Assembly (NCBI GenBank): GCA_001443025.1
Contig: LEKP01000001.1
Coordinates: forward strand, 161,889 to 225,888
Direction: 5' to 3'
From: Parcubacteria bacterium GBS-2
GTDB lineage: Bacteria; Patescibacteriota; Minisyncoccia; Minisyncoccales; GBS-2
DNA length: 64,000 nt
Position numbers and translations under genes: made by a program. Shown in pieces: positions 4,420 through 33,332 of this stretch. The notes under the pieces are model-generated. The model did no database searches. It worked only from the letters and a program-made list of their open reading frames with translations, and was not told the origin of the DNA. Each line of letters begins with the position of its first letter. Within the stretch, counting starts at the first letter, position 1.

Positions 4420-5178
4420 TTGAAAATGCTTAAAGAGTTAATAGATAAATTTTATTTGGAAAGAGAGAAAGAAAAAAAGAAAAAAGAAAAAGAAAGAGTA
4501 AGGTTTTTTATTAGTGAAGCAGGAAAATGTCCTAGGATGATATTTTTTAGATTTAAGAAAGCACCAGCAGAAGAGATTGAGCCTGAAAGACTAAGAATCT
4601 TTGAGGAGGGAGAAATAATTCAACAAAGAATTCTGAGACTCCTTTTTTCTTTGGGAATTGTCAGGGCGACTGAAGTTCAAATTCCTCCTCAGGAATTGGT
4701 TGCAGGCAGAGCAGATGCAATTATTTCCTTTACTGATAAAACTTTTTCTGATTTGGGAATTGACCTCAAAGAAAAAATAGAGCCTGGAATTCCCTACGTT
4801 TTAGAAATAAAAAGTGTTTCTGGAAAAATAAATTTAAAAAAGCTTCCTCTTCCAGATCATATTAACCAACTACAGCTTTATTTACACTTTTTCAAAATTA
4901 AAAAGGGAATCTTGCTTTATCTAAACAAAGATACTCAAAAAATCACTGAATTTATTTTTGAATATGATAAAAACTTAGTAGAAAAAATTTTGAATTGGTT
5001 TTTGAAATTAAAAGAAAAGATTGAAGCAGATTTAGTCCCCATTAGATTACCTGATTGGCCTGACAACTGGCAATGTCAAAATTGCGAATTTTTCGAAATT
5101 TGCAAAATTGCAGGTGAAAGAGAAATATCGTGGGAAAAATTAAAAAAAGAAATTGAGAAAGGAGAAATTTTATCTTAA
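4420..5178 (+). CDS. Cas4/RecB-like PD-(D/E)XK exonuclease with 4-Cys cluster
   Basis: N-terminal Cys (GKCPRMIFF), GRADAII, VLEIKSVS (ExK), QLQLYLHF (QxxxY) and C-terminal CQNCEFFEIC (Cx2Cx5C). The ATG at 4426 is the likelier start. Confidence 0.65.
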   Translation: MKMLKELIDKFYLEREKEKKKKEKERVRFFISEAGKCPRMIFFRFKKAPAEEIEPERLRIFEEGEIIQQRILRLLFSLGIVRATEVQIPPQELVAGRADAIISFTDKTFSDLGIDLKEKIEPGIPYVLEIKSVSGKINLKKLPLPDHINQLQLYLHFFKIKKGILLYLNKDTQKITEFIFEYDKNLVEKILNWFLKLKEKIEADLVPIRLPDWPDNWQCQNCEFFEICKIAGEREISWEKLKKEIEKGEILS

Positions 5179-6375
5179 AAGAGGGTCGGTTTCAAAAAGT
5201 TTTCCATCTTTTTTGAAATAAATTTTTTTGGTTTGAAAACTAAAAGATAAATCTTCTCCAGGAAGTTCTTTTAATTCATAAACATTAATTTTATCTCTTT
5301 TATCTGTTTCTAAGAGTTTAATTTTATTCTGAAAAATCAAAATTAGATAGTCTTCGTTGAACCAGTAGACTTTATCGATTTTTTCTGAGAATCTGTTTAA
5401 AAAATCGTTTTTTCCGTTTTCAAAGAGCCAGATTTCATAATCTGAAAAAATGGCAAGTTTTTTTGAGCCTGGAGATGGTTCAATTCCTTTAAGGTTTTCA
5501 AAAATTTTTTCAAATTGTGCGTCTTTTAAAAAATAAAGAGCTCCTTGAGTTTCTAAAAATACCCAATCATTAAATATTCGCAGTCTACAGTCTCCGATTA
5601 AGGAAAAAGGTTCGTTGTTTAATCTTCTTCCATTTTTTAAAAGGTATCCTGAATTTTCAAAAAAATATTCACTTTCTTCTATTTTTTTAAAACAAATTAC
5701 GTTTTCAGGAATAATTTCTTCCTCCTTTTCTCTAATTTGGGGTGGAATTTTTTTAAGATTTAAAAGAAAGTTTTTTATTTCTTCTTCAATTTTTAATTGA
5801 ATTTCAATTTGTTCTGAATTTTCATTAAAATTCAATCCTAAGAATTCAGTTTCTTTTTTAAAATCTTCTTCACTTAACAAATAAGATTTTATTTTTTTCT
5901 CAAGGGAATAAGATTTTAAAACCCATTGTTCTTCATTCTTTTCCTTTAAAATTAATTCTTTTCCGTTTGGCAAAATCCAAAATTGATCGATATCAGATAA
6001 AATTTGATAAAAATTTAAATTTTCTGGAAATAAAATTAGGTTCTTTACTTCAGTGACCTTTTCTTCTTCCACTTCTAGTTCCTTTTCCCATGGGAAATAC
6101 CCCTCTTTTGTAACTCTTACTTTATACTTCTTCGGTAAAAGATTGTCTATCAGCAGAGAGCCAAAAAAAGAATCAGTTCTTTTCTTAATTTTTCCATCAA
6201 TTGAAACCTCCACTTCCTTAGGTATTGCTTTAATAAAGATCCCCCCTGTTTTTGTTACTTTCCTTTTTTCAAAATCAAAGCGATAACCCAACGAGTAAAA
6301 GACCAAAATTGGTCCAAATATTAAAAATATCAAACACAAGGAAAAAAATAAAATTTTCCTTTGCCAATTTTTCAT
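5170..6375 (-). CDS. Membrane-anchored PEGA-domain protein
   Basis: N-terminal TM helix, then a PEGA-like segment (VEVSIDGKIKK...YKVRVTKEGYFPWEKELEV). The rest is unassigned. Confidence 0.45.
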   Translation of the reverse strand: MKNWQRKILFFSLCLIFLIFGPILVFYSLGYRFDFEKRKVTKTGGIFIKAIPKEVEVSIDGKIKKRTDSFFGSLLIDNLLPKKYKVRVTKEGYFPWEKELEVEEEKVTEVKNLILFPENLNFYQILSDIDQFWILPNGKELILKEKNEEQWVLKSYSLEKKIKSYLLSEEDFKKETEFLGLNFNENSEQIEIQLKIEEEIKNFLLNLKKIPPQIREKEEEIIPENVICFKKIEESEYFFENSGYLLKNGRRLNNEPFSLIGDCRLRIFNDWVFLETQGALYFLKDAQFEKIFENLKGIEPSPGSKKLAIFSDYEIWLFENGKNDFLNRFSEKIDKVYWFNEDYLILIFQNKIKLLETDKRDKINVYELKELPGEDLSFSFQTKKIYFKKDGKLFETDPLLR

Positions 6376-8838: not shown

Positions 8839-9903
8839 ATGCTTGATTTTCTTTTAGTTTTTCTTTCTTTAATTTTCTTGATAATATTGCACGAATTTGC
8901 CCATTTTTTAGCAGCGAAAAAATCTGGAGTGTTGGTTGAAGAATTTGGAATTGGCTATCCACCTCGAATCTTCGGAAAGAAAATTGGAAGCACACTATAC
9001 TCAATCAACCTTTTACCTTTTGGCGCATTTGTAAAATTAGAAGGAGAAATAGGAAATAAAGGTTTTTCTGCCCAACCTCTTTCAAGAAGGATAATCATTG
9101 TTTTAGCAGGAGTAATTTCTTTTTGGGTAATTTCATGTCTTATTTTTATCTTTCTTTTCAAGTTTGGAATACCAGTTGCCATTCCTGATGAAGAAATTTC
9201 TAAAACTGCAAAAATTCAAATCATTGAAATAGCAAAAAACTCTCCAGCTCAGACTGCTGGTTTGATGGCCGGAGATGTAATCAAAGAAGTAAAGATTCAA
9301 AACTTAAAATTTGAGATTAAAAAAGTAAGTGAATTTCAAGAACTAGTTCAAAAATACAAAGGAGAAAAAATGATTTTAACAATAGAAAGAGGAAAAGAAA
9401 ATCTTGAGCTAGAGGTGGTTCCAAGGACTAATCCTCCAAAAGGAGAAGGGCCGATTGGAATAGTATTGGTAAGGGTTGATATTAAAAAATATCCTTTTTT
9501 TGAATCAATTTTTGAAGGAGTAAAAATGACCATTAATTTGACCTTCCAGATCATCAAAGGATATTTTTTAGTCGTTAAAAATATACTTGAAGGTGTTTCT
9601 CCTCAAGTAGAGTTAGCTGGACCAGTAGGTATTTTCAATATAATGTATCAAACGTCGAAAGTAGGAGTAATTTATTTTTTTAATCTTTTGGCAACTATTT
9701 CTATTTATTTGGCAATTTTCAACCTTCTTCCAATTCCGGGATTGGACGGCGGAAAACTCGTTTTTTTATTAATTGAAGGAATAAGAAAGAAAGCCATTTC
9801 TCAAGAAACTGAAAATAAAATTACCGCTTTCTTTTTTGGACTTTTAATAATTTTGATAATCTTGGTTACAATAAAGGATATTAGCAAAATTTTAAATCAA
9901 TGA
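8839..9903 (+). CDS. rseP: Site-2 (M50) membrane metalloprotease, RseP-like, one PDZ
   Basis: HEFAHFLAAK (HExxH), a PDZ-like NSPAQTAGLMAGDVI segment, and C-terminal NLLPIPGLDGG. Confidence 0.85.
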   Translation: MLDFLLVFLSLIFLIILHEFAHFLAAKKSGVLVEEFGIGYPPRIFGKKIGSTLYSINLLPFGAFVKLEGEIGNKGFSAQPLSRRIIIVLAGVISFWVISCLIFIFLFKFGIPVAIPDEEISKTAKIQIIEIAKNSPAQTAGLMAGDVIKEVKIQNLKFEIKKVSEFQELVQKYKGEKMILTIERGKENLELEVVPRTNPPKGEGPIGIVLVRVDIKKYPFFESIFEGVKMTINLTFQIIKGYFLVVKNILEGVSPQVELAGPVGIFNIMYQTSKVGVIYFFNLLATISIYLAIFNLLPIPGLDGGKLVFLLIEGIRKKAISQETENKITAFFFGLLIILIILVTIKDISKILNQ

Positions 9904-12472: not shown

Positions 12473-13914
12473 AATTAGAAGATTTTACAATTGAAAAGAT
12501 TAAGGAGGGATTATTAAAAAAAGAATTTTCCGCTACAGAGTTGACTAAAGCGTATTTAGAAAAAATAGAAAAAGAAGACAAAAAAATTCGCGCTTTTTTA
12601 ACTCTCTCTCCTGAAATAGCGCTCAAACAAGCAAAAGAAATAGATGAAAGAATTTTCTTGAAGAAAGAACTTCCTTCATTAGCTGGAGTTCCTTGCGCAA
12701 TAAAGGATAACATTTTAGTAGAAGGAATAAAATGTACTGCAGGATCAAAAATTTTAGAAAATTATATCGCACCCTACGATGCAACGGTCATTCGAAAATT
12801 AAAAGAGGCAGGAGTAGTGATTTTGGGGAAGACTAATTTAGATGAATTTGCGATGGGAAGTTCCAACGAAAATTCTGCGTTTTTTACCACCAAAAATCCC
12901 TTAGACTTAGAAAAAGTTCCTGGAGGATCTTCAGGAGGATCTGCTGCTGCAGTAGCGGCGAATTTTTGTGTGTTTGCTTTAGGTTCTGATACTGGAGGTT
13001 CAATTAGGCAACCCGCTTCTTTTTGTGGAATTGTTGGTTTAAAACCAACCTACGGCGCTGTTTCTAGATATGGCCTAATCGCATTTGCTTCTTCTTTAGA
13101 TCAAATAGGACCGATGACAAAGAATGTGCGCGATTGTAAAGCTGTTTTTGAAGTAATTAGGGGGAAAGATGAAATGGATTCAACAAGTCTTGAAATGAAA
13201 GAAGTGAATAATTTGCGTATTCGATCTCTCGAGGAAATAAAAATTGGACTTCCAAAAGAATATTTTTTGGAAGGAATGGATCCCGAGGTTGAAGAAAAAA
13301 TTAAAAAAGCAATAAAAAAATACGAAGAGATGGGAGCTAAAATTTTAGAAATTTCTTTGCCCCACACTCCTTATGCTCTAGCCTGTTATTACATTATTGC
13401 TACTTCCGAAGCTAGCGCAAATTTGGCAAGATATGATGGGATAAAGTATGGATTTTCGATAATAAAAAATGAACAACGAACAATTGACAATTTATTGGAA
13501 GTTTATTTTAAAAGTAGAGGGCAAGGTTTTGGGGAGGAGGTTAGAAGAAGAATAATGTTAGGAACATTTTCTCTTTCAATAGGATATTACGATGCTTACT
13601 ACCTAAGAGCAGCAAGAGTTAGGAGTTTAATTATCAAAGATTTTGAAGAAGCCTTTAAGAAAGTTGATTTAATCCTTGCTCCTACCAGTCCAACTTTACC
13701 TTTTAAATTGGGAGAAAAAATTGATGATCCTTTAAAAATGTATCTTTCTGATGTGTTTACAGTTTCAGTGAATTTAGCAGGATTGCCAGCTATTTCAATC
13801 CCAGTTGGAAAAGTAGGTAATTTGTCAGTGGGTCTTCAAATTATAGGAAAACCGTTCGAAGAAGAAAAAATTTTTGATCTGGCAACCTTCTATGAGCTTT
13901 CAACAAGTAATTAA
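12469..13914 (+). CDS. gatA: Asp/Glu-tRNA amidotransferase subunit A
   Basis: Amidase signature GGSSGGSAAAVAA...GSDTGGSIRQPASFCG. Confidence 0.92.
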   Translation: MKLEDFTIEKIKEGLLKKEFSATELTKAYLEKIEKEDKKIRAFLTLSPEIALKQAKEIDERIFLKKELPSLAGVPCAIKDNILVEGIKCTAGSKILENYIAPYDATVIRKLKEAGVVILGKTNLDEFAMGSSNENSAFFTTKNPLDLEKVPGGSSGGSAAAVAANFCVFALGSDTGGSIRQPASFCGIVGLKPTYGAVSRYGLIAFASSLDQIGPMTKNVRDCKAVFEVIRGKDEMDSTSLEMKEVNNLRIRSLEEIKIGLPKEYFLEGMDPEVEEKIKKAIKKYEEMGAKILEISLPHTPYALACYYIIATSEASANLARYDGIKYGFSIIKNEQRTIDNLLEVYFKSRGQGFGEEVRRRIMLGTFSLSIGYYDAYYLRAARVRSLIIKDFEEAFKKVDLILAPTSPTLPFKLGEKIDDPLKMYLSDVFTVSVNLAGLPAISIPVGKVGNLSVGLQIIGKPFEEEKIFDLATFYELSTSN

Positions 13915-14419
13915 TGAAATTATTTCCTTTTTACTTTATCCAGAATTTAGCGGTTGGCTTTTAATTTTAAAATACATCTTTTTAGCCTTCGGTTTTTTAT
14001 TCCTTGGTTTTAGTCTTTGGGGAATTTTTAAAACGTCATGGTTAAAAAGAGCAATTTTAATAGATCTTAAAGAGTTTCTGACATATAAACCCTACTATGC
14101 AAAAACTTTTGTTCCACAATGGAAAAAAATTTTGAAAAGATTAGAAACTGATATTGAATCAAATTTTAAGTTAGCAGTAATTGAGGCGGACGAACTTTTA
14201 AATAAAGCCTTAGAAAAGACTGGCTACGGAGGAATGGATTTAGCAGAAAAATTAGAAAAAATTCCAGAAGATGTCATTTCGAACCTAGGTGAATTAAAAA
14301 AAGTTAGAAGAATAAGAGATGATATAATTGCTGACCCTTCTTATCAGCTCACTAAAGAAGAGGCACAGAGAATAATTAAAGCTTATGAAAAGGCATTAAG
14401 AGATTTACAAGTACTTTAA
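13892..14419 (+). CDS. Hypothetical membrane protein
   Basis: The ORF has two predicted TM helices and a helical C-terminal domain. No family was recognised. The ATG at 13892 is preferred over the TTG at 13874. Confidence 0.4.
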   Translation: MSFQQVINEIISFLLYPEFSGWLLILKYIFLAFGFLFLGFSLWGIFKTSWLKRAILIDLKEFLTYKPYYAKTFVPQWKKILKRLETDIESNFKLAVIEADELLNKALEKTGYGGMDLAEKLEKIPEDVISNLGELKKVRRIRDDIIADPSYQLTKEEAQRIIKAYEKALRDLQVL

Positions 14420-14473
14420 AATTTGATAAAATAATAGATCATCTAATGAGTAAATTGCTTGCGTGTTAAATTT

Positions 14474-14545
14474 AGCGGGGTAGAGGAGTAGTACCTCGCC
14501 AGCCTCATAAGCTGGAGATCGCTGGTGCAAGTCCAGCCCCCGCAA
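14474..14545 (+). tRNA. tRNA-Met(CAU), initiator-like
   Basis: Hand-folded cloverleaf. The acceptor AGCGGGG/CCCCGCA-A has a 1:72 mismatch and otherwise matches the E. coli tRNA-fMet acceptor. A11:U24 is present and the anticodon loop is CUCAUAA. The GGG:CCC anticodon-stem signature is absent. Confidence 0.7.
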
Positions 14546-14564
14546 CAATAATAGCGAATTAGCG

Positions 14565-14969
14565 AATTAGTTGATGAGTTTATGAGTGAAGAGTTTTTCT
14601 TTGAAAAGTTAGAGGTCTATTAGAGGAGTTTGAGGTTTGCAATTAAACTTTGTAAATTGGCAAGCAGTTTCCCAATAAAGTTTTCAAGAATAAGAGATCA
14701 ATTGATAGGAGCAGCGATTTCAATTCCCCTAAATATTGCTGAAGGATCGGGCAGAAAATCACAAAAAGAGAAGATAAATTTTTATAAAATAAGTAGGACT
14801 TCTTTATTCGAATGCATTCCGATTCTTGAAATTTGTTTAAGTCTAAAATTAATAGACGGGAAGGAATATGAAGAATTAAGAAAAGAAGATTTAGAACTTT
14901 CAAAAATGATTAACGGCTTAATAAAATCCCTTTAATCTACTCATCAACTAATTCACTCATCAACTAATT
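14565..14969. repeat. Inverted repeats bounding the four-helix-bundle gene cassette
   Basis: AATTAGTTGATGAGT at 14565-14579 has two perfect inverted copies, ACTCATCAACTAATT at 14939-14953 and 14955-14969. Confidence 0.8.
14582..14935 (+). pseudogene. Four-helix-bundle protein ('23S rRNA intervening-sequence protein' family) with in-frame TAG
   Basis: ATG at 14582 gives MSEEFFFEKLEVY, then TAG (14621-14623), then in frame RSLRFAIKLCKLASSFP...IPLNIAEGSGRKSQKEKINFYKISRTSLFE. This is the family pattern FEKLEVYQ...NIAEG.GR. Confidence 0.75.
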
Positions 14970-14979
14970 ACTAAATAAC

Positions 14980-15051
14980 GTCGGGGTAGCTCAATGGCTA
15001 GAGCGCTGCTCTCATAAGGCAGAGATGTGGGTTCAATCCCCACCCCCGACA
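14980..15051 (+). tRNA. tRNA with CAU anticodon, elongator type (Met or lysidine-modified Ile2)
   Basis: Cloverleaf with acceptor GTCGGGG/CCCCGAC, D arm GCTC-AATGGCTA-GAGC, anticodon loop CTCATAA and T arm GTGGG-TTCAATC-CCCAC. C11:G24 is elongator-like. Confidence 0.75.
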
Positions 15052-15056
15052 TAAAA

Positions 15057-15176
15057 TAGTAGATTAGTAAATGAGTACGGCGCTTCGCGCCTTTAGTAGA
15101 TGAGTTAAAAAATTCTCATTATCTTCTTATTAACTCATTAACTCATCTACTCATCAACTCATTTACTAATTTACTA
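15057..15176 (+). repeat. About 120-nt branched hairpin element (copy C) filling the tRNA spacer
   Basis: The outer arm 15057-15076 pairs with 15157-15176 at 18 of 20 positions. There is a side hairpin GGCGC-TTC-GCGCC (15079-15091). The inner arm AGTAGATGAGTTA pairs with TAACTCATCTACT. The core 15063-15105 recurs inverted at 19683-19725. Confidence 0.75.
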
Positions 15177-15181
15177 ATTAT

Positions 15182-15257
15182 GGGGGCGTAGTTCAGCCCG
15201 GTCTAGAACACCCGCCTGTCACGCGGGAGCCCGTGGGTTCAAATCCCATCGCCCCCG
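15182..15257 (+). tRNA. tRNA-Asp(GUC)
   Basis: Cloverleaf with acceptor GGGGGCG/CGCCCCC, anticodon loop CTGTCAC, T arm GTGGG-TTCAAAT-CCCAT and discriminator G. Confidence 0.9.
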
Positions 15258-15275
15258 CTGCCAAAATTTTGGCAG
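15258..15275 (+). other. Perfect 18-nt palindrome CTGCCAAAATTTTGGCAG immediately 3' of tRNA-Asp
   Basis: Seen directly. Candidate processing or termination hairpin. Confidence 0.5.
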
Positions 15276-15343
15276 CCAGATTCTCTCGATAAAGCAATGA
15301 GAGAATTCTGGTAAAGGTCGTAAATCTTGAAAGATAGAAAATC

Positions 15344-15607
15344 ATGGTAGAAAAAAAGCCAGACCAAGAATTCTTAGAAGCCATTGTCAAATTTCTCTGC
15401 GATCACCCTGAAGCAGCAAAAATAACAAGGACGGTAGACGAGATGGGAGTCTTGCTTTCTCTGAAAGTTCATCCTGACGATATGGGTCAAATCATCGGAA
15501 AGCAAGGACAGACTGTGAAAGCAATCAGACATTTAGTAAGGATTGTTGGATTAAAAAACCATGCCAGGGTGACGCTGAGAATAGAAGAACCAGAGAAAAA
15601 AACCTAA
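15344..15607 (+). CDS. KH-domain RNA-binding protein (YlqC/UPF0109-like), copy 1
   Basis: 87 aa with VDEMGVLLSLKVHPDDMGQIIGKQGQTVKAIRHLV (GxxG KH motif). Confidence 0.8.
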   Translation: MVEKKPDQEFLEAIVKFLCDHPEAAKITRTVDEMGVLLSLKVHPDDMGQIIGKQGQTVKAIRHLVRIVGLKNHARVTLRIEEPEKKT

Positions 15608-15629
15608 AAAAATCGAGAGAATCTGACTT

Positions 15630-15658
15630 AAAGAGGGGCTAATTTAGCCCCTCTTTTT
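15630..15658 (+). terminator. Intrinsic terminator after KH copy 1
   Basis: AAAGAGGGGC-TAATTTA-GCCCCTCTTT followed by a T run. Confidence 0.75.
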
Positions 15659-15756
15659 CTTGACAATAATTTAAAAAATGGAGAAAATATAATTGTTTTA
15701 AGCTCCGATTGATCGAAGATCTGGAGCGAAAGGTCAAAATAGAAATTCAGAAAAAT

Positions 15757-16023
15757 ATGGCAAAATTACCCGCAGATCAAGAATTCCTTGAATACGTTGT
15801 GAAGTCTCTTGTCGATCACAAAGAGGATGTAAAAGTTACGAGAAAAGTTGACGAAATGGGAGTTTTGCTTTCTCTGAAAGTTCATCCAGATGACATGGGG
15901 CAGATAATAGGTAAAGGCGGAGCGACAGTCAGGGCAATAAGATCTTTGGTAAGGTTGGTTGGGGCCAAAAATCATGCAAGAGTGAATTTAAAGATTGAAG
16001 AGCCAGAAAAGAAAGAAAGCTAA
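15757..16023 (+). CDS. KH-domain RNA-binding protein, copy 2 (tandem paralogue)
   Basis: MAKLPADQEFLEYVV...VDEMGVLLSLKVHPDDMGQIIGKGGATVRAIRSLV. The ATG at 15757 gives 88 aa, parallel to copy 1. The track start at 15709 is a TTG. Confidence 0.8.
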   Translation: MAKLPADQEFLEYVVKSLVDHKEDVKVTRKVDEMGVLLSLKVHPDDMGQIIGKGGATVRAIRSLVRLVGAKNHARVNLKIEEPEKKES

Positions 16024-19597: not shown

Positions 19598-19751
19598 TTA
19601 GCCGCAGACAGCAGGTATAATTAGTAGATGAGTGAATTAGTAGATGAGTTGATGAGTAAATAAGTTGATGAGAAATCTTTTCACTCATCTACTAAAGGCG
19701 CGAAGTGCCGTACTCATTTACTAATTTACTAATAAATCCTGCCGAGGCTAA
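19598..19751 (+). promoter_or_regulatory. Putative rplJ (L10) leader stem
   Basis: TTAGCC (19598-19603) pairs with GGCTAA (19746-19751). GCAGG (19611-19615) pairs with CCTGC (19738-19742). An asymmetric internal loop lies between them (GCAGACA vs CGA). The apex is occupied by repeat element D. Confidence 0.5.
19616..19737 (-). repeat. Branched hairpin element (copy D), inverted relative to copy C
   Basis: 19683-19725 is the reverse complement of 15063-15105 with a single mismatch (42 of 43). The arms are built from TAGTAGATGAGT- and TTGATGAGT-type words. Confidence 0.8.
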
Positions 19752-25920: not shown

Positions 25921-25949
25921 TTGACAAACAGATTTAAAAGTGTTAAAAT
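25921..25949 (+). promoter_or_regulatory. Promoter of the Cys-rich repeat gene (leaderless geometry)
   Basis: TTGACA, 17 nt, TAAAAT (25944-25949), then 8 nt to ATG 25958. Confidence 0.6.
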
Positions 25950-25957
25950 TTTTTATC

Positions 25958-26698
25958 ATGAAGAATAATATAAAAGTTTTGATAATTCTTCTGATTTCCA
26001 TCTTTTGGGGACTACTTTTGATTTTCCATTTTCAAAAAACAGTTTCAGCTGCTACTTGCGGAAACGGAGTTTGCGAATCAGGAGAAACTTGTTCAAATTG
26101 CAGTATAGATTGTGGAAGTTGTGGTCCTACTTGTGGAAATGGGATTTGTGAATCAGGAGAAACTTGTAGTAATTGTTCTATAGATTGTGGTTCTTGCGGA
26201 CCAACTTGCGGAAACGGAGTTTGCGAATCAGGAGAAACTTGTTCAAATTGCAGTATAGATTGTGGAAGTTGTGGTCCTACTTGTGGAAATGGGATTTGTG
26301 AATCAGGAGAAGTAAACATATGCTGCAGTGATTGTCCTCCAACATGTGGAAACGGAGTTTGCGAATCAAATTGCGGAGAAAGTGCTTCAAATTGCTGTTT
26401 AGATTGTTATGTAGAACATTATCAAAAGAAATGCTATGACAACGATGTTTATTGGTACGATTGTAATGGTCAAAGAAAAGATAAATACCAAGAGTGTGGA
26501 ACTTCTGGTTGGACAGATGAATATCGATGTGCGGGAAATTGGGTTCAAAGAAAGTATATAAACAGAGGTTGTTCAAATGCACAATGTTATGCAACGGAAG
26601 AATGGAAGGATTATCAGTATTGCTCAAATTACTGCCTAAATGGAAAATGTGTTTTTCCTCCAACAGTGATAACTAAAGGAGCGGTGGTGACATATTAA
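25958..26698 (+). CDS. Secreted Cys-rich repeat protein (TCGNGxCESGETCSNCSIDCGSCGP x4-5) ending in VITKGAVVTY
   Basis: Signal/TM peptide MKNNIKVLIILLISIFWGLLLIF, 25-aa Cys repeats, a Cys/aromatic-rich domain and the conserved C-terminal decapeptide. Confidence 0.7.
   Translation: MKNNIKVLIILLISIFWGLLLIFHFQKTVSAATCGNGVCESGETCSNCSIDCGSCGPTCGNGICESGETCSNCSIDCGSCGPTCGNGVCESGETCSNCSIDCGSCGPTCGNGICESGEVNICCSDCPPTCGNGVCESNCGESASNCCLDCYVEHYQKKCYDNDVYWYDCNGQRKDKYQECGTSGWTDEYRCAGNWVQRKYINRGCSNAQCYATEEWKDYQYCSNYCLNGKCVFPPTVITKGAVVTY
26054..26311 (+). repeat. 150-bp-period tandem duplication inside the Cys-rich gene
   Basis: 26054-26161 is identical to 26204-26311 (108 nt, checked by hand). The units are 75-bp A and B modules. 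Confidence 0.85.
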
Positions 26699-32411: not shown

Positions 32412-33332
32412 TTAAATTTTGATTTCAACAATATCTTCATCGTTCAATATATAATCTCTTCCTACAATTTTGAAATTTCTTGAATTTTTCTCATAAAGCT
32501 TCGCTCCCTTAAATCTTTTTACCCATTCCTCATTTATTTCTTTTACAAAATCAATTAACTTTGTCCCTCTTTTTAAAATAAAAGGATTTTCAAAATCAAC
32601 CTCTTTTTTTGGCTCTTTTGGATAAACTCTAATTATCTTTAGCGACTCAAAAATTTTTCTTTTTAACTCTTCAACCTTAATTTTTTCTTTTGTTGAAATT
32701 CCCAAAATCTCAAAATCTTTCTTTATTTTTTCAAAATTTTCTCTTCCTTTTTCTAAATCAATTTTGTTCCCCGCAATCAAAATTTTTTCTTTTTCAATTT
32801 TCCAATCATTCAAAATTTGTTTAATTTCTTTTAGTTGGTTTTCAGGATTGTTTTCTAAATCTACTAGAACTAAAATCGAATCTGCTTGTTTTGCAAGATT
32901 TTTTAGCCAACCGGGTTTAAAATCTCCCGTTAAAGGAGGAGTATCTACGATTTGAATCAAAATATTTTCATATTTTAGCATTCCAGGAGTTGGCAATTGA
33001 GTTGTGAAAGGATAATCTCCAACTTTAAAATTAGTATCACAAAGTGCATTCGTTAAAGAAGTTTTTCCAGAGTTTGGAGGACCCAAAATTAAAACCTGTC
33101 CTGCCCCTTCCTTTTTCACAAAATAAATTTCCTCTCTTTTTATCTTTTTTGGCTGTACTCTTTTTAACTTTGCTATTTTCTTTTTTATTTCTTCTTGGAC
33201 CCTTTCTGTTCCTTTGTGCTTTGGACAAATAGCAAGCATTTCTTGCAAAATTTCAATTTTCTCTTGAATGTCTTTAGTTTGATTTAATTTCCTTTGCAAT
33301 TCAAAAAATTGGGGAGGCAAATTTGCTGGCAT
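32412..33332 (-). CDS. DRG/Rbg-like (archaeo-eukaryotic type) OBG-family GTPase with C-terminal TGS domain
   Basis: KHKGTERVQEEIKKKIAKLKR, G1 GPPNSGKTS, FTTQLPTPG, DTPP, NKIDL, and a TGS-like segment IRVYPKEP...PFILKRGTKLIDF. Confidence 0.75.
   Translation of the reverse strand: MPANLPPQFFELQRKLNQTKDIQEKIEILQEMLAICPKHKGTERVQEEIKKKIAKLKRVQPKKIKREEIYFVKKEGAGQVLILGPPNSGKTSLTNALCDTNFKVGDYPFTTQLPTPGMLKYENILIQIVDTPPLTGDFKPGWLKNLAKQADSILVLVDLENNPENQLKEIKQILNDWKIEKEKILIAGNKIDLEKGRENFEKIKKDFEILGISTKEKIKVEELKRKIFESLKIIRVYPKEPKKEVDFENPFILKRGTKLIDFVKEINEEWVKRFKGAKLYEKNSRNFKIVGRDYILNDEDIVEIKI

Follow-up and report, generated by a model that had tools for sequence, protein, structure and literature searches.

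A four-helix-bundle gene bracketed by inverted word arrays in a tRNA cluster of a Parcubacteria bacterium: the anatomy of a 23S rRNA intervening sequence outside rRNA

Genes of one family of four-helix-bundle (4HB) proteins have been described in 23S rRNA intervening sequences (IVSs), in diversity-generating retroelements (DGRs) and in insertions between cas genes (PMC4990558, PMC10053308, PMC3936711, PMC10910872). The IVS of Coxiella burnetii, 428-444 nt long and closed by a 28-bp terminal stem, contains the S23p open reading frame (ORF) and is cut by RNase III, and the results of its authors suggested that S23p is not made in vivo (PMC4990558); 23S_rRNA_IVP ORFs also occur in rRNA insertions of bacteria of the Candidate Phyla Radiation (CPR) (PMC11270868). 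What kind of element, then, is formed when such a gene lies in a tRNA cluster? The question is raised by a stretch of 64,000 nt from Parcubacteria bacterium GBS-2 (contig LEKP01000001.1, positions 161,889 to 225,888; called the window below), in which a 4HB gene occupies the 433-nt spacer between two tRNA(CAU) genes and is bracketed by inverted repeats, referred to as arms. The answer that we favour, and regard as fairly probable, is an IVS-type looped-out cassette consisting of the 4HB gene and its arms, which would be co-transcribed with the tRNAs and cut by RNase III.

The arms lie where the original prediction had placed them. The core arm AATTAGTTGATGAGT is found at 14565-14579 (+) and its perfect reverse complements at 14939-14953 and 14955-14969. 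Ahead of the core arm the 5' flank carries TAGCGAAT in 2.4 copies (14552-14570), and the tandem-repeat search described the 3' arm as 1.9 copies of a 16-nt period with 100 % match. When up to three mismatches were allowed, the core 15-mer matched the window 23 times in comparison to 4.0 matches expected, and the word pattern TAGTWRATGAGT 20 times in comparison to 0.8; neither count was reached in any of 100 shuffles. Instead of being spread uniformly through the intergenic DNA, the arm words are confined in the 64 kb to three loci (14565-14969, 15054-15179 and 19619-19731), each with hairpin symmetry. In an A+T-rich genome (27-38 % G+C in the window), where short A/T-rich repeats are common, such words could be taken for chance low-complexity sequence, but the shuffled counts, the restriction to three hairpin loci and an architecture conserved in dozens of independent assemblies refute this explanation, and we give it practically no credence.

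Folding of the whole spacer placed the outer arm stem in both the minimum-free-energy and the centroid structures, and the arm-to-arm duplex taken alone reached -24.9 kcal/mol, in comparison to -9.2 +/- 2.5 kcal/mol in shuffles. The arms continue as imperfect repeats of 22-23 nt with 87-91 % complementarity, and in one register the ATG of the gene falls inside the stem. A stem closing the ORF, as the original prediction had expected, is thus predicted here, and the same was obtained for 22 non-redundant related loci, where the duplexes between the 5' and 3' flanks had energies of -18 to -53 kcal/mol over about 15-46 bp and were stabler than the best of 100 shuffles in nearly all cases (the exceptions being L059 and L060).

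The related loci were collected by protein scans in JGI metagenomes and in a set of genomes with one representative per species, and by exact look-ups of homologues and of TrmD, the product of a neighbouring window gene. Taxa are named as in the records, and alignment of the repetitive arms is approximate. In approximately 19 distinct loci, recorded as Patescibacteria, Saccharibacteria or unclassified bacteria, the order is always tRNA(CAU), 4HB gene, tRNA(CAU) and tRNA-Asp, the 4HB proteins being 65-99 % identical. Measured between the end of the tRNA and the ATG, the 5' flank is typically 33-35 nt long (the window, L011, L012, L037, L038, L042, L044 and L046) and the 3' flank of the tRNA loci, from the stop codon to the next tRNA, typically 39-50 nt. 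Since both flanks are short and almost wholly filled by word arrays, there is no space for a promoter of the 4HB gene itself.

The gene is also found in other stable-RNA contexts, namely tRNA-Thr(GGU)-4HB-rpmG/tRNA-Trp, tRNA-Tyr-4HB-tRNA-Thr, tRNA-Gly-4HB-tRNA-Arg and rpmG-4HB-tRNA-Trp, and in bins of Zixibacteria (L022 5001-5503) and Ignavibacteria (L024 5001-5550) a homologue lies between tRNA-Ala and the signal recognition particle (SRP) RNA gene. About nine more contexts are spacers of co-directional protein genes, including pilus operons and an NTP-transferase/RecO pair. In Cyclobacteriaceae (Algoriphagus, Belliella, Cognataquiflexum, Aquiflexum) a homologue with 33-38 % identity occupies the trpE-trpG spacer. 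Rfam searches of the window, L007 and 19 tRNA-less loci detected only tRNAs and SRP RNA and no rRNA, and no family matched the hairpins. Two conserved-peptide patterns found no 4HB relatives on viral contigs.

The words of the arms differ between lineages, and the divergent words ATTAGY (L043, L048), GGTTAGT (L017), TGAGTRA (L047), TATGGGT (the tRNA-Thr group) and TACTCAYA all have matching complements in the corresponding 3' arms. When 5' arms were paired with the 3' arms of all loci, the own partner ranked first in 7 of the 22 loci, the divergent-word lineages included. Judged at the level of words, the arms co-vary between lineages. Their periodicity is also shared: the autocorrelation of the arms peaks at a lag of 8 nt, with 0.49 in the CPR Met-Met group (loci with the gene between two tRNA(CAU) genes) and 0.59 in Cyclobacteriaceae in comparison to about 0.27 inside ORFs, and the arms of the other groups peak at a lag of 7-8. 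The purine-rich arm always standing 5' is uninformative as a strand test, since a hairpin keeps this polarity on inversion.

The tie between arms and 4HB genes was apparent from an inverted-repeat scan that took no account of ORFs and covered repeats 200-1300 nt apart in all DNA retrieved. At a score of at least 17 the matches bracket 4HB genes or tRNA segments within word arrays, with three exceptions: a PDDEXK_3 gene, a 47-nt repeat in L046 and an AT-rich pair at window positions 32820/34058. At scores of 15-16, 4HB genes are mixed with A+T-rich pairs resembling chance. As the matches concern almost only 4HB genes, bracketing by arms is specific to these small genes and not shared by genes at large in these genomes, and the association foreseen by the original prediction is strong. 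The L046 repeat (1241-1287/2176-2222) is nearly perfect and surrounds a 292-aa membrane-protein ORF; it has no relation to the word arms and may represent another kind of mobile or invertible element. The PDDEXK_3 (PF13366) gene of a CPR pilus operon encodes 131 aa (L076 364-759; also L051 3323-3801, L075, L077 and L078) and is enclosed in L076 by inverted TACGAAA-word arrays with a perfect 16-bp outer stem, GCTACGAAATACGAAA. An unrelated ORF family is therefore packaged in the same architecture, one gene 5' of a 4HB cassette in the same operon.

The assignment of the window gene to the 4HB family is firm, with full-length matches to PF05635 (E 5e-28, 97.8 bits against a cut-off of 33.8) and TIGR02436 (E 9e-29, 99.9 bits against a cut-off of 24), and neither tblastn nor a profile search found a second 4HB gene in the window. 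The original prediction was right about the family, and overlooked an in-frame TAG at 14621-14623, codon 14, owing to which the reading frame is not intact. The longest uninterrupted ORF (14630-14935) begins with TTG, encodes 101 aa and still scores 85.1 bits; a restart at this TTG is possible and would yield a protein without part of helix 1. The near-identical contigs L006 and L036 and the protein P0001 have CAG at codon 14 and an intact frame of 117 aa, glutamine is the commonest residue at this position (80 of 115 homologues), and TAG terminates 6 of 58 long ORFs of the genome and is thus an ordinary stop codon. Recoding of the in-frame TAG is ruled out by the last observation together with CAG in the sister strains. 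By all these comparisons the window copy is a very recent nonsense allele.

Among the Met-Met orthologues pairwise dN/dS amounts to 0.05-0.15 and synonymous sites are mostly saturated, so the protein is functional and the arrangement old; these ratios place the 4HB protein under strong purifying selection. The AlphaFold2 model of the intact allele P0001 (pLDDT 96.7) consists of four long helices, and Foldseek matched it to Xcc0516 (2GSC; TM-score 0.91, rmsd 1.3) and BT_0352 (2RLD; TM-score 0.80), members of the same family and fold whose crystal entries are pentamers of four-helix bundles. In the literature searched these two were described without word arrays or a tRNA-operon context, unlike the gene considered here. 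With respect to GxxRxxxSxxxNxxE, quoted as a conserved motif of the 4HB family (PMC3936711), S47, N51 and E54 are invariant in the subfamily and the G and R are replaced by Q40 and G43.

The same model matched Avd, the DGR accessory subunit (4DWL and 8UB7), with a TM-score of 0.78. CPR bacteria carry many DGRs. Since Avd proteins moreover resemble Pfam family PF05635 (PMC10053308), the gene might be an Avd subunit, which we hold to be highly improbable: identity to Avd is 12-15 %, the conserved context is a tRNA operon, and the annotation of L001, covering about 8.5 kb upstream and 12 kb downstream, contains no RVT Pfam family. No ORF with the YxDD motif was detected in the window (among the loci one unrelated match was found, in L052, 3.3 kb away), nor was a template repeat/variable repeat (TR/VR) pair. 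Since neither a reverse transcriptase (RT) nor a TR/VR pair was found over these stretches, a role in a DGR was rejected. The likeness to Avd extends beyond the bundle to the basic character of the proteins (pI 9.0 here, median 9.2 in the relatives). Avd is part of an RNA-protein complex, and for a basic protein with an Avd-like modelled fold nucleic-acid binding is plausible.

Table 1. Features of the tRNA-4HB locus and of the word hairpins (window coordinates)
Feature	Position	Strand	Basis or remark
Promoter-like site (TTTACA, 17 nt, TAAAAT, with TG)	14404..14432	+	10/12 consensus matches only; 5' of the tRNA cluster
tRNA(CAU), initiator-like, 1:72 mismatch, CCA not encoded	14474..14546	+	ARAGORN, Rfam; mismatch read from the sequence
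5' flank, 35 nt, 8-nt words	14547..14581	+	Ends 2 nt 5' of the ATG
PF05635/TIGR02436 four-helix-bundle gene, 117 codons and TAA	14582..14935	+	TAG at codon 14
3' arm, two tandem reverse complements of the 5' arm	14939..14969	+	Begins 3 nt past the stop codon
Second tRNA(CAU), elongator Met or Ile2	14980..15051	+	ARAGORN, Rfam
ORF-less word hairpin filling the tRNA(CAU)-tRNA-Asp spacer	15052..15181	+	Folding, inverted repeats
tRNA-Asp(GUC), last gene of the cluster	15182..15258	+	ARAGORN, Rfam
Palindrome GCTGCCAAAATTTTGGCAGC following tRNA-Asp	15257-15276		Inverted-repeat search
Second ORF-less word hairpin, between the DJ-1/PfpI gene and rplJ	19616..19737	+	Folding, blastn

The layout of the locus (Table 1) is compatible with the following course of events. 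No promoter-like site was found between the first tRNA, probably the initiator as judged from its 1:72 mismatch, and the 4HB ORF; the sole one lies upstream of that tRNA and is the candidate promoter of a tRNA-4HB transcript. The search of 13800-15800 found no intrinsic terminator. The promoter-less cassette would be transcribed from the tRNA promoter within the tRNA precursor, the arms would pair, and the ORF would be extruded as the loop of a long hairpin, which would bring the 3' end of one tRNA near the 5' end of the next. RNase III may then cut the stem, as it does in the 23S rRNA IVS, and/or the stem may protect the released small mRNA. In this manner the tRNAs would mature normally, and a strong stable-RNA promoter would drive the 4HB gene without much burden on the host. 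In the protein-operon contexts the arms reach as far as the stop codon of the preceding gene and the ATG of the following one, so that their pairing would restore the original juxtaposition there as well; the same logic would also account for the classical rRNA IVS. The cassette is an old resident of this CPR lineage with a protein under selection, yet it behaves as replaceable, and its copy in the window is newly nonsense-mutated. A stem is predicted, the words are confined to hairpins and the arms are tied to 4HB genes, and therefore the IVS-like arrangement outside rRNA that had been proposed is supported at the level of anatomy and conservation.

Several observations weigh against a looped-out cassette. 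Its expression and processing are predictions from sequence, and a signature-motif search of the window and the retrieved loci, which represent a fraction of the genome, found no RNase III. With 16 contiguous bp and about 21 in total, the stem in the window is on the short side for RNase III. Folded as a whole, the spacer has a z-score of only -1.7 and is not significantly stabler than shuffles, because the interior of the ORF dominates the folding energy. The mismatches in the arms comprise 26 of the wobble type and 27 of the A-C type, with no bias towards G-U in the sense RNA, so that they do not demonstrate selection for RNA pairing and leave room for a DNA-level cause. All comparators are metagenome-derived, and chimeras at repeated tRNA genes are possible. 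In Cyclobacteriaceae the divergence of the cassette matches that of trpE and trpG; there it shows no sign of transfer and looks vertically inherited. Finally, since ORF-less hairpins are present in other tRNA spacers, the arms could be a property of host tRNA operons.

The ORF-less hairpins deserve closer description in this respect. The one in the Met-Asp spacer has a predicted energy of -47.9 kcal/mol (z -10.9) and is composed of outer arms (15054-15076/15157-15179), inner arms (15095-15108/15138-15151) and a small G+C hairpin (15079-15091); the second one in the window has a z-score of -6.4. By blastn 15057-15171 and 19731-19619 are 87 % identical, and the two hairpins thus represent a single element in opposite orientations. 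Conservation of the Met-Asp hairpin was seen in L038 and L012, where its small G+C hairpin has one extra base pair. These elements had been taken for empty versions of the 4HB cassette, a reasonable reading that is supported in part: they share words, architecture and location with the cassette arms and are conserved in relatives, and they may have arisen from a cassette by loss of the ORF.

Similar ORF-less word hairpins (z -3 to -12) occupy the Met-Asp, Met-His, Arg-Asp and Tyr-Thr spacers of many relatives. They start about 5-8 nt past one tRNA and stop about 8-10 nt before the next, and the Met-Asp hairpin is conserved across species with saturated synonymous sites, as would be expected if the host builds its tRNA spacers as word hairpins, serving as processing or insulating signals, in one of which a 4HB gene has merely lodged. 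We consider this explanation unlikely, since armed 4HB genes are present without any tRNA in the protein-gene spacers of CPR bacteria (L016, L050, L053, L054, L056, L072, L082), the trpE-trpG cassettes of Cyclobacteriaceae are armed as well, with lineage-specific words, and the block of high identity shared by L043 and L048 (below) consists of the 5' arm and the ORF with the tRNA excluded. It also partly overlaps the looped-out cassette and is not exclusive of it. As a separate observation, the genomes of L013 (5519-5984) and L014, approximately 85 % identical, differ by a block of tRNA-His and tRNA-Arg with nearly duplicate word hairpins on its two sides; such spacers may have a role when tRNA genes are gained or lost.

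The spacer varies even among strains that are at least 99.8 % identical downstream and have identical tRNAs. Between the initiator and the second tRNA(CAU) three states were found: the intact cassette (L006, L036), the TAG allele (the window, L001, L002) and copies of an unrelated G+C-rich element (L007, L004). The last state comes from two independent assemblies with a common junction to the second tRNA. The replacing element, approximately 95 nt with two small hairpins, GGTGACAG...CGCCATGGAGGGGA...CCCCTATGGAGAGCGGAGCGAAG (L007 47-233 and 306-579; L004 80-240), had no match in Rfam. L007 has its Met-Asp hairpin replaced as well and contains, in addition, 8-nt CTGGTT words in a run.

Exchange is also indicated by discordance between the cassette and its surroundings. 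L038 and L012 are 99.2 % identical in the ORF and 91-95 % in the arms, in comparison to 66 % in the upstream flank and 86 % in tRNA-Asp. L043 and L048 share about 95 % identity over the 5' arm and ORF, with approximately 70 % in the initiator tRNA and 64 % in the flank, and identity changes abruptly no more than 5 nt from the 3' end of the tRNA. ORF identity exceeds the mean tRNA identity in 37 of 105 pairs. A 5' half-tRNA of foreign type between the 3' arm of the L043 cassette and the resident tRNA (L043 2550-2601) matches the second tRNA(CAU) of L044 and looks like the footprint of the recombination event that brought the cassette in. These comparisons, together with the analogous periodic arms of homologues in protein-gene and trpE-trpG spacers and of the PDDEXK_3 gene, suggest that the cassette can be replaced as a unit and is exchanged laterally. 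Its spread could proceed through homologous recombination within the stable-RNA genes on either side, which are conserved; the exact swaps of spacers between strains agree with this, and the L043/L048 boundary agrees less well.

The same data bear on the possibility that the unit is mobile at the level of DNA, being similar to miniature inverted-repeat transposable elements (MITEs) or repetitive extragenic palindromic (REP) sequences and moved by a recombinase encoded elsewhere; the arms would then be terminal inverted repeats or hairpin/cruciform recombination sites and the RNA stem would be incidental. It would explain the presence within 64 kb of two oppositely oriented ORF-less copies with 87 % identity, whole spacers present or replaced among near-identical strains, the missing sense-RNA bias in the G-U versus A-C test, the half-tRNA beside the L043 cassette and the similar packaging of a PDDEXK_3 nuclease-family gene. 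We nevertheless judge it quite improbable. The annotation, which reaches about 8.5 kb upstream and 12 kb downstream, lists neither a transposase nor an integrase or reverse transcriptase, the window contains no RT or RNase III motif, and no target-site duplication is visible at the junctions of the window and L007 variants. What varies is precisely the whole spacer between identical tRNAs, a pattern equally well explained by homologous recombination within the tRNA genes; the number of arm copies varies by slippage of words and is not fixed; and the position is conserved over deep divergence. An integron attC cassette was rejected, since the arm reads GTTGATG, with T where GTTRRRY requires a purine (R), no integrase is annotated over the same distance, and inverted repeats stand on both sides of the ORF.

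Other features of the region were recorded in passing. Directly 3' of the tRNA cluster and 5' of trmD lie two tandem genes for KhpA-like KH-domain proteins (15344-15607 and 15709-16023) with approximately 71 % nucleotide identity. Some strains carry an island of about 4.3 kb directly after tRNA-Asp (L002 4912-9183; also L003), inserted in L002 between the points corresponding to window positions 15258 and 15271. It encodes a DUF2341/Laminin_G_3 protein (810 aa) and a glycoside hydrolase family 3 protein (377 aa), and its ends form an inverted repeat of about 45 nt (L002 about 5128-5190 versus about 8975-9035). At 26052-26311 of the window, within ORF 25940-26698, lie 3.5 tandem copies of a 75-nt unit (78 % match), which encodes a Cys-rich repeat and varies in copy number among the sister contigs.

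Among known systems the looped-out cassette is closest to the 23S IVS of Coxiella burnetii and Leptospira (PMC4990558). The ORF family is the same and the size nearly equal, both elements lie within a stable-RNA transcription unit and have terminal inverted repeats by which the ORF is closed into a stem, and the distribution among strains is sporadic and laterally exchanged. It differs in that it lies between two tRNA genes and not in helix 9, 25 or 45 of 23S rRNA, and in that its arms are tandem 8-nt words, whereas the Coxiella stem is a unique 28-bp sequence. Unlike Coxiella S23p, the ORF is under strong purifying selection throughout the clade; cleavage by RNase III is a prediction here. 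It is thus an element with the anatomy of a classical 23S IVS, yet not one, being outside rRNA. The RNase III stems that flank 16S and 23S rRNA (PMC8708148, PMC6582327) are comparable as long-range pairing within a stable-RNA precursor, but they enclose the functional RNA, whereas here a protein-coding insert would be enclosed and the functional RNAs juxtaposed outside.

The two ORF-less hairpins of the window are dispersed inverted repeats in co-directional intergenic spacers, and in this they are similar to the Correia elements of Neisseria and to REP sequences and bacterial interspersed mosaic elements (BIMEs). Correia elements are co-transcribed intergenic hairpin repeats cut by RNase III, and REP/BIME are comparable. 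These families have no ORF, possess defined terminal repeats and target-site duplications, and are free of periodic 8-nt arrays and of a tie to tRNA spacers. The literature searched, with most subscription journals lying outside it, contained no description of 4HB genes in tRNA operons or of inverted arms made of periodic words.

The origin and role of the rRNA IVS and of its conserved ORF have been a question since the early 1990s. The same unit of ORF and stem is present in tRNA operons and other operon spacers and is not confined to rRNA, its arms are built of short periodic words in widely separated lineages, and it is gained, lost and exchanged. A broader proposal, which is tentative and rather unlikely to hold, is that promoter-less, hairpin-bracketed cassettes with a 4HB or PDDEXK_3 ORF and arms of 7-8-nt words form a general, semi-selfish class, undescribed so far, which colonises co-directional spacers across phyla, and of which the classical 23S IVS would be the special case noticed first; the 4HB protein may recognise its own arrays. 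If this were true, the sites colonised would comprise rRNA helices, tRNA operons, tRNA-SRP RNA units, and pilus and trp operons, looping out would keep the cassettes harmless to the host, and they may spread by means of the excised RNA or through the word arrays themselves.

For annotation the finding means that word arrays around 4HB genes can be mistaken for other types of repeat, and that tRNA spacers in these bacteria are hot spots of strain variation. For RNase III processing and for the binding of nucleic acids by 4HB proteins, test systems simpler than the ribosome would be offered by a 0.6-kb tRNA-cassette-tRNA transcript and by the trpE-trpG spacer of cultivable Algoriphagus. The IVS would thereby be recast from a curiosity of rRNA to a testable class of looped-out gene cassettes.

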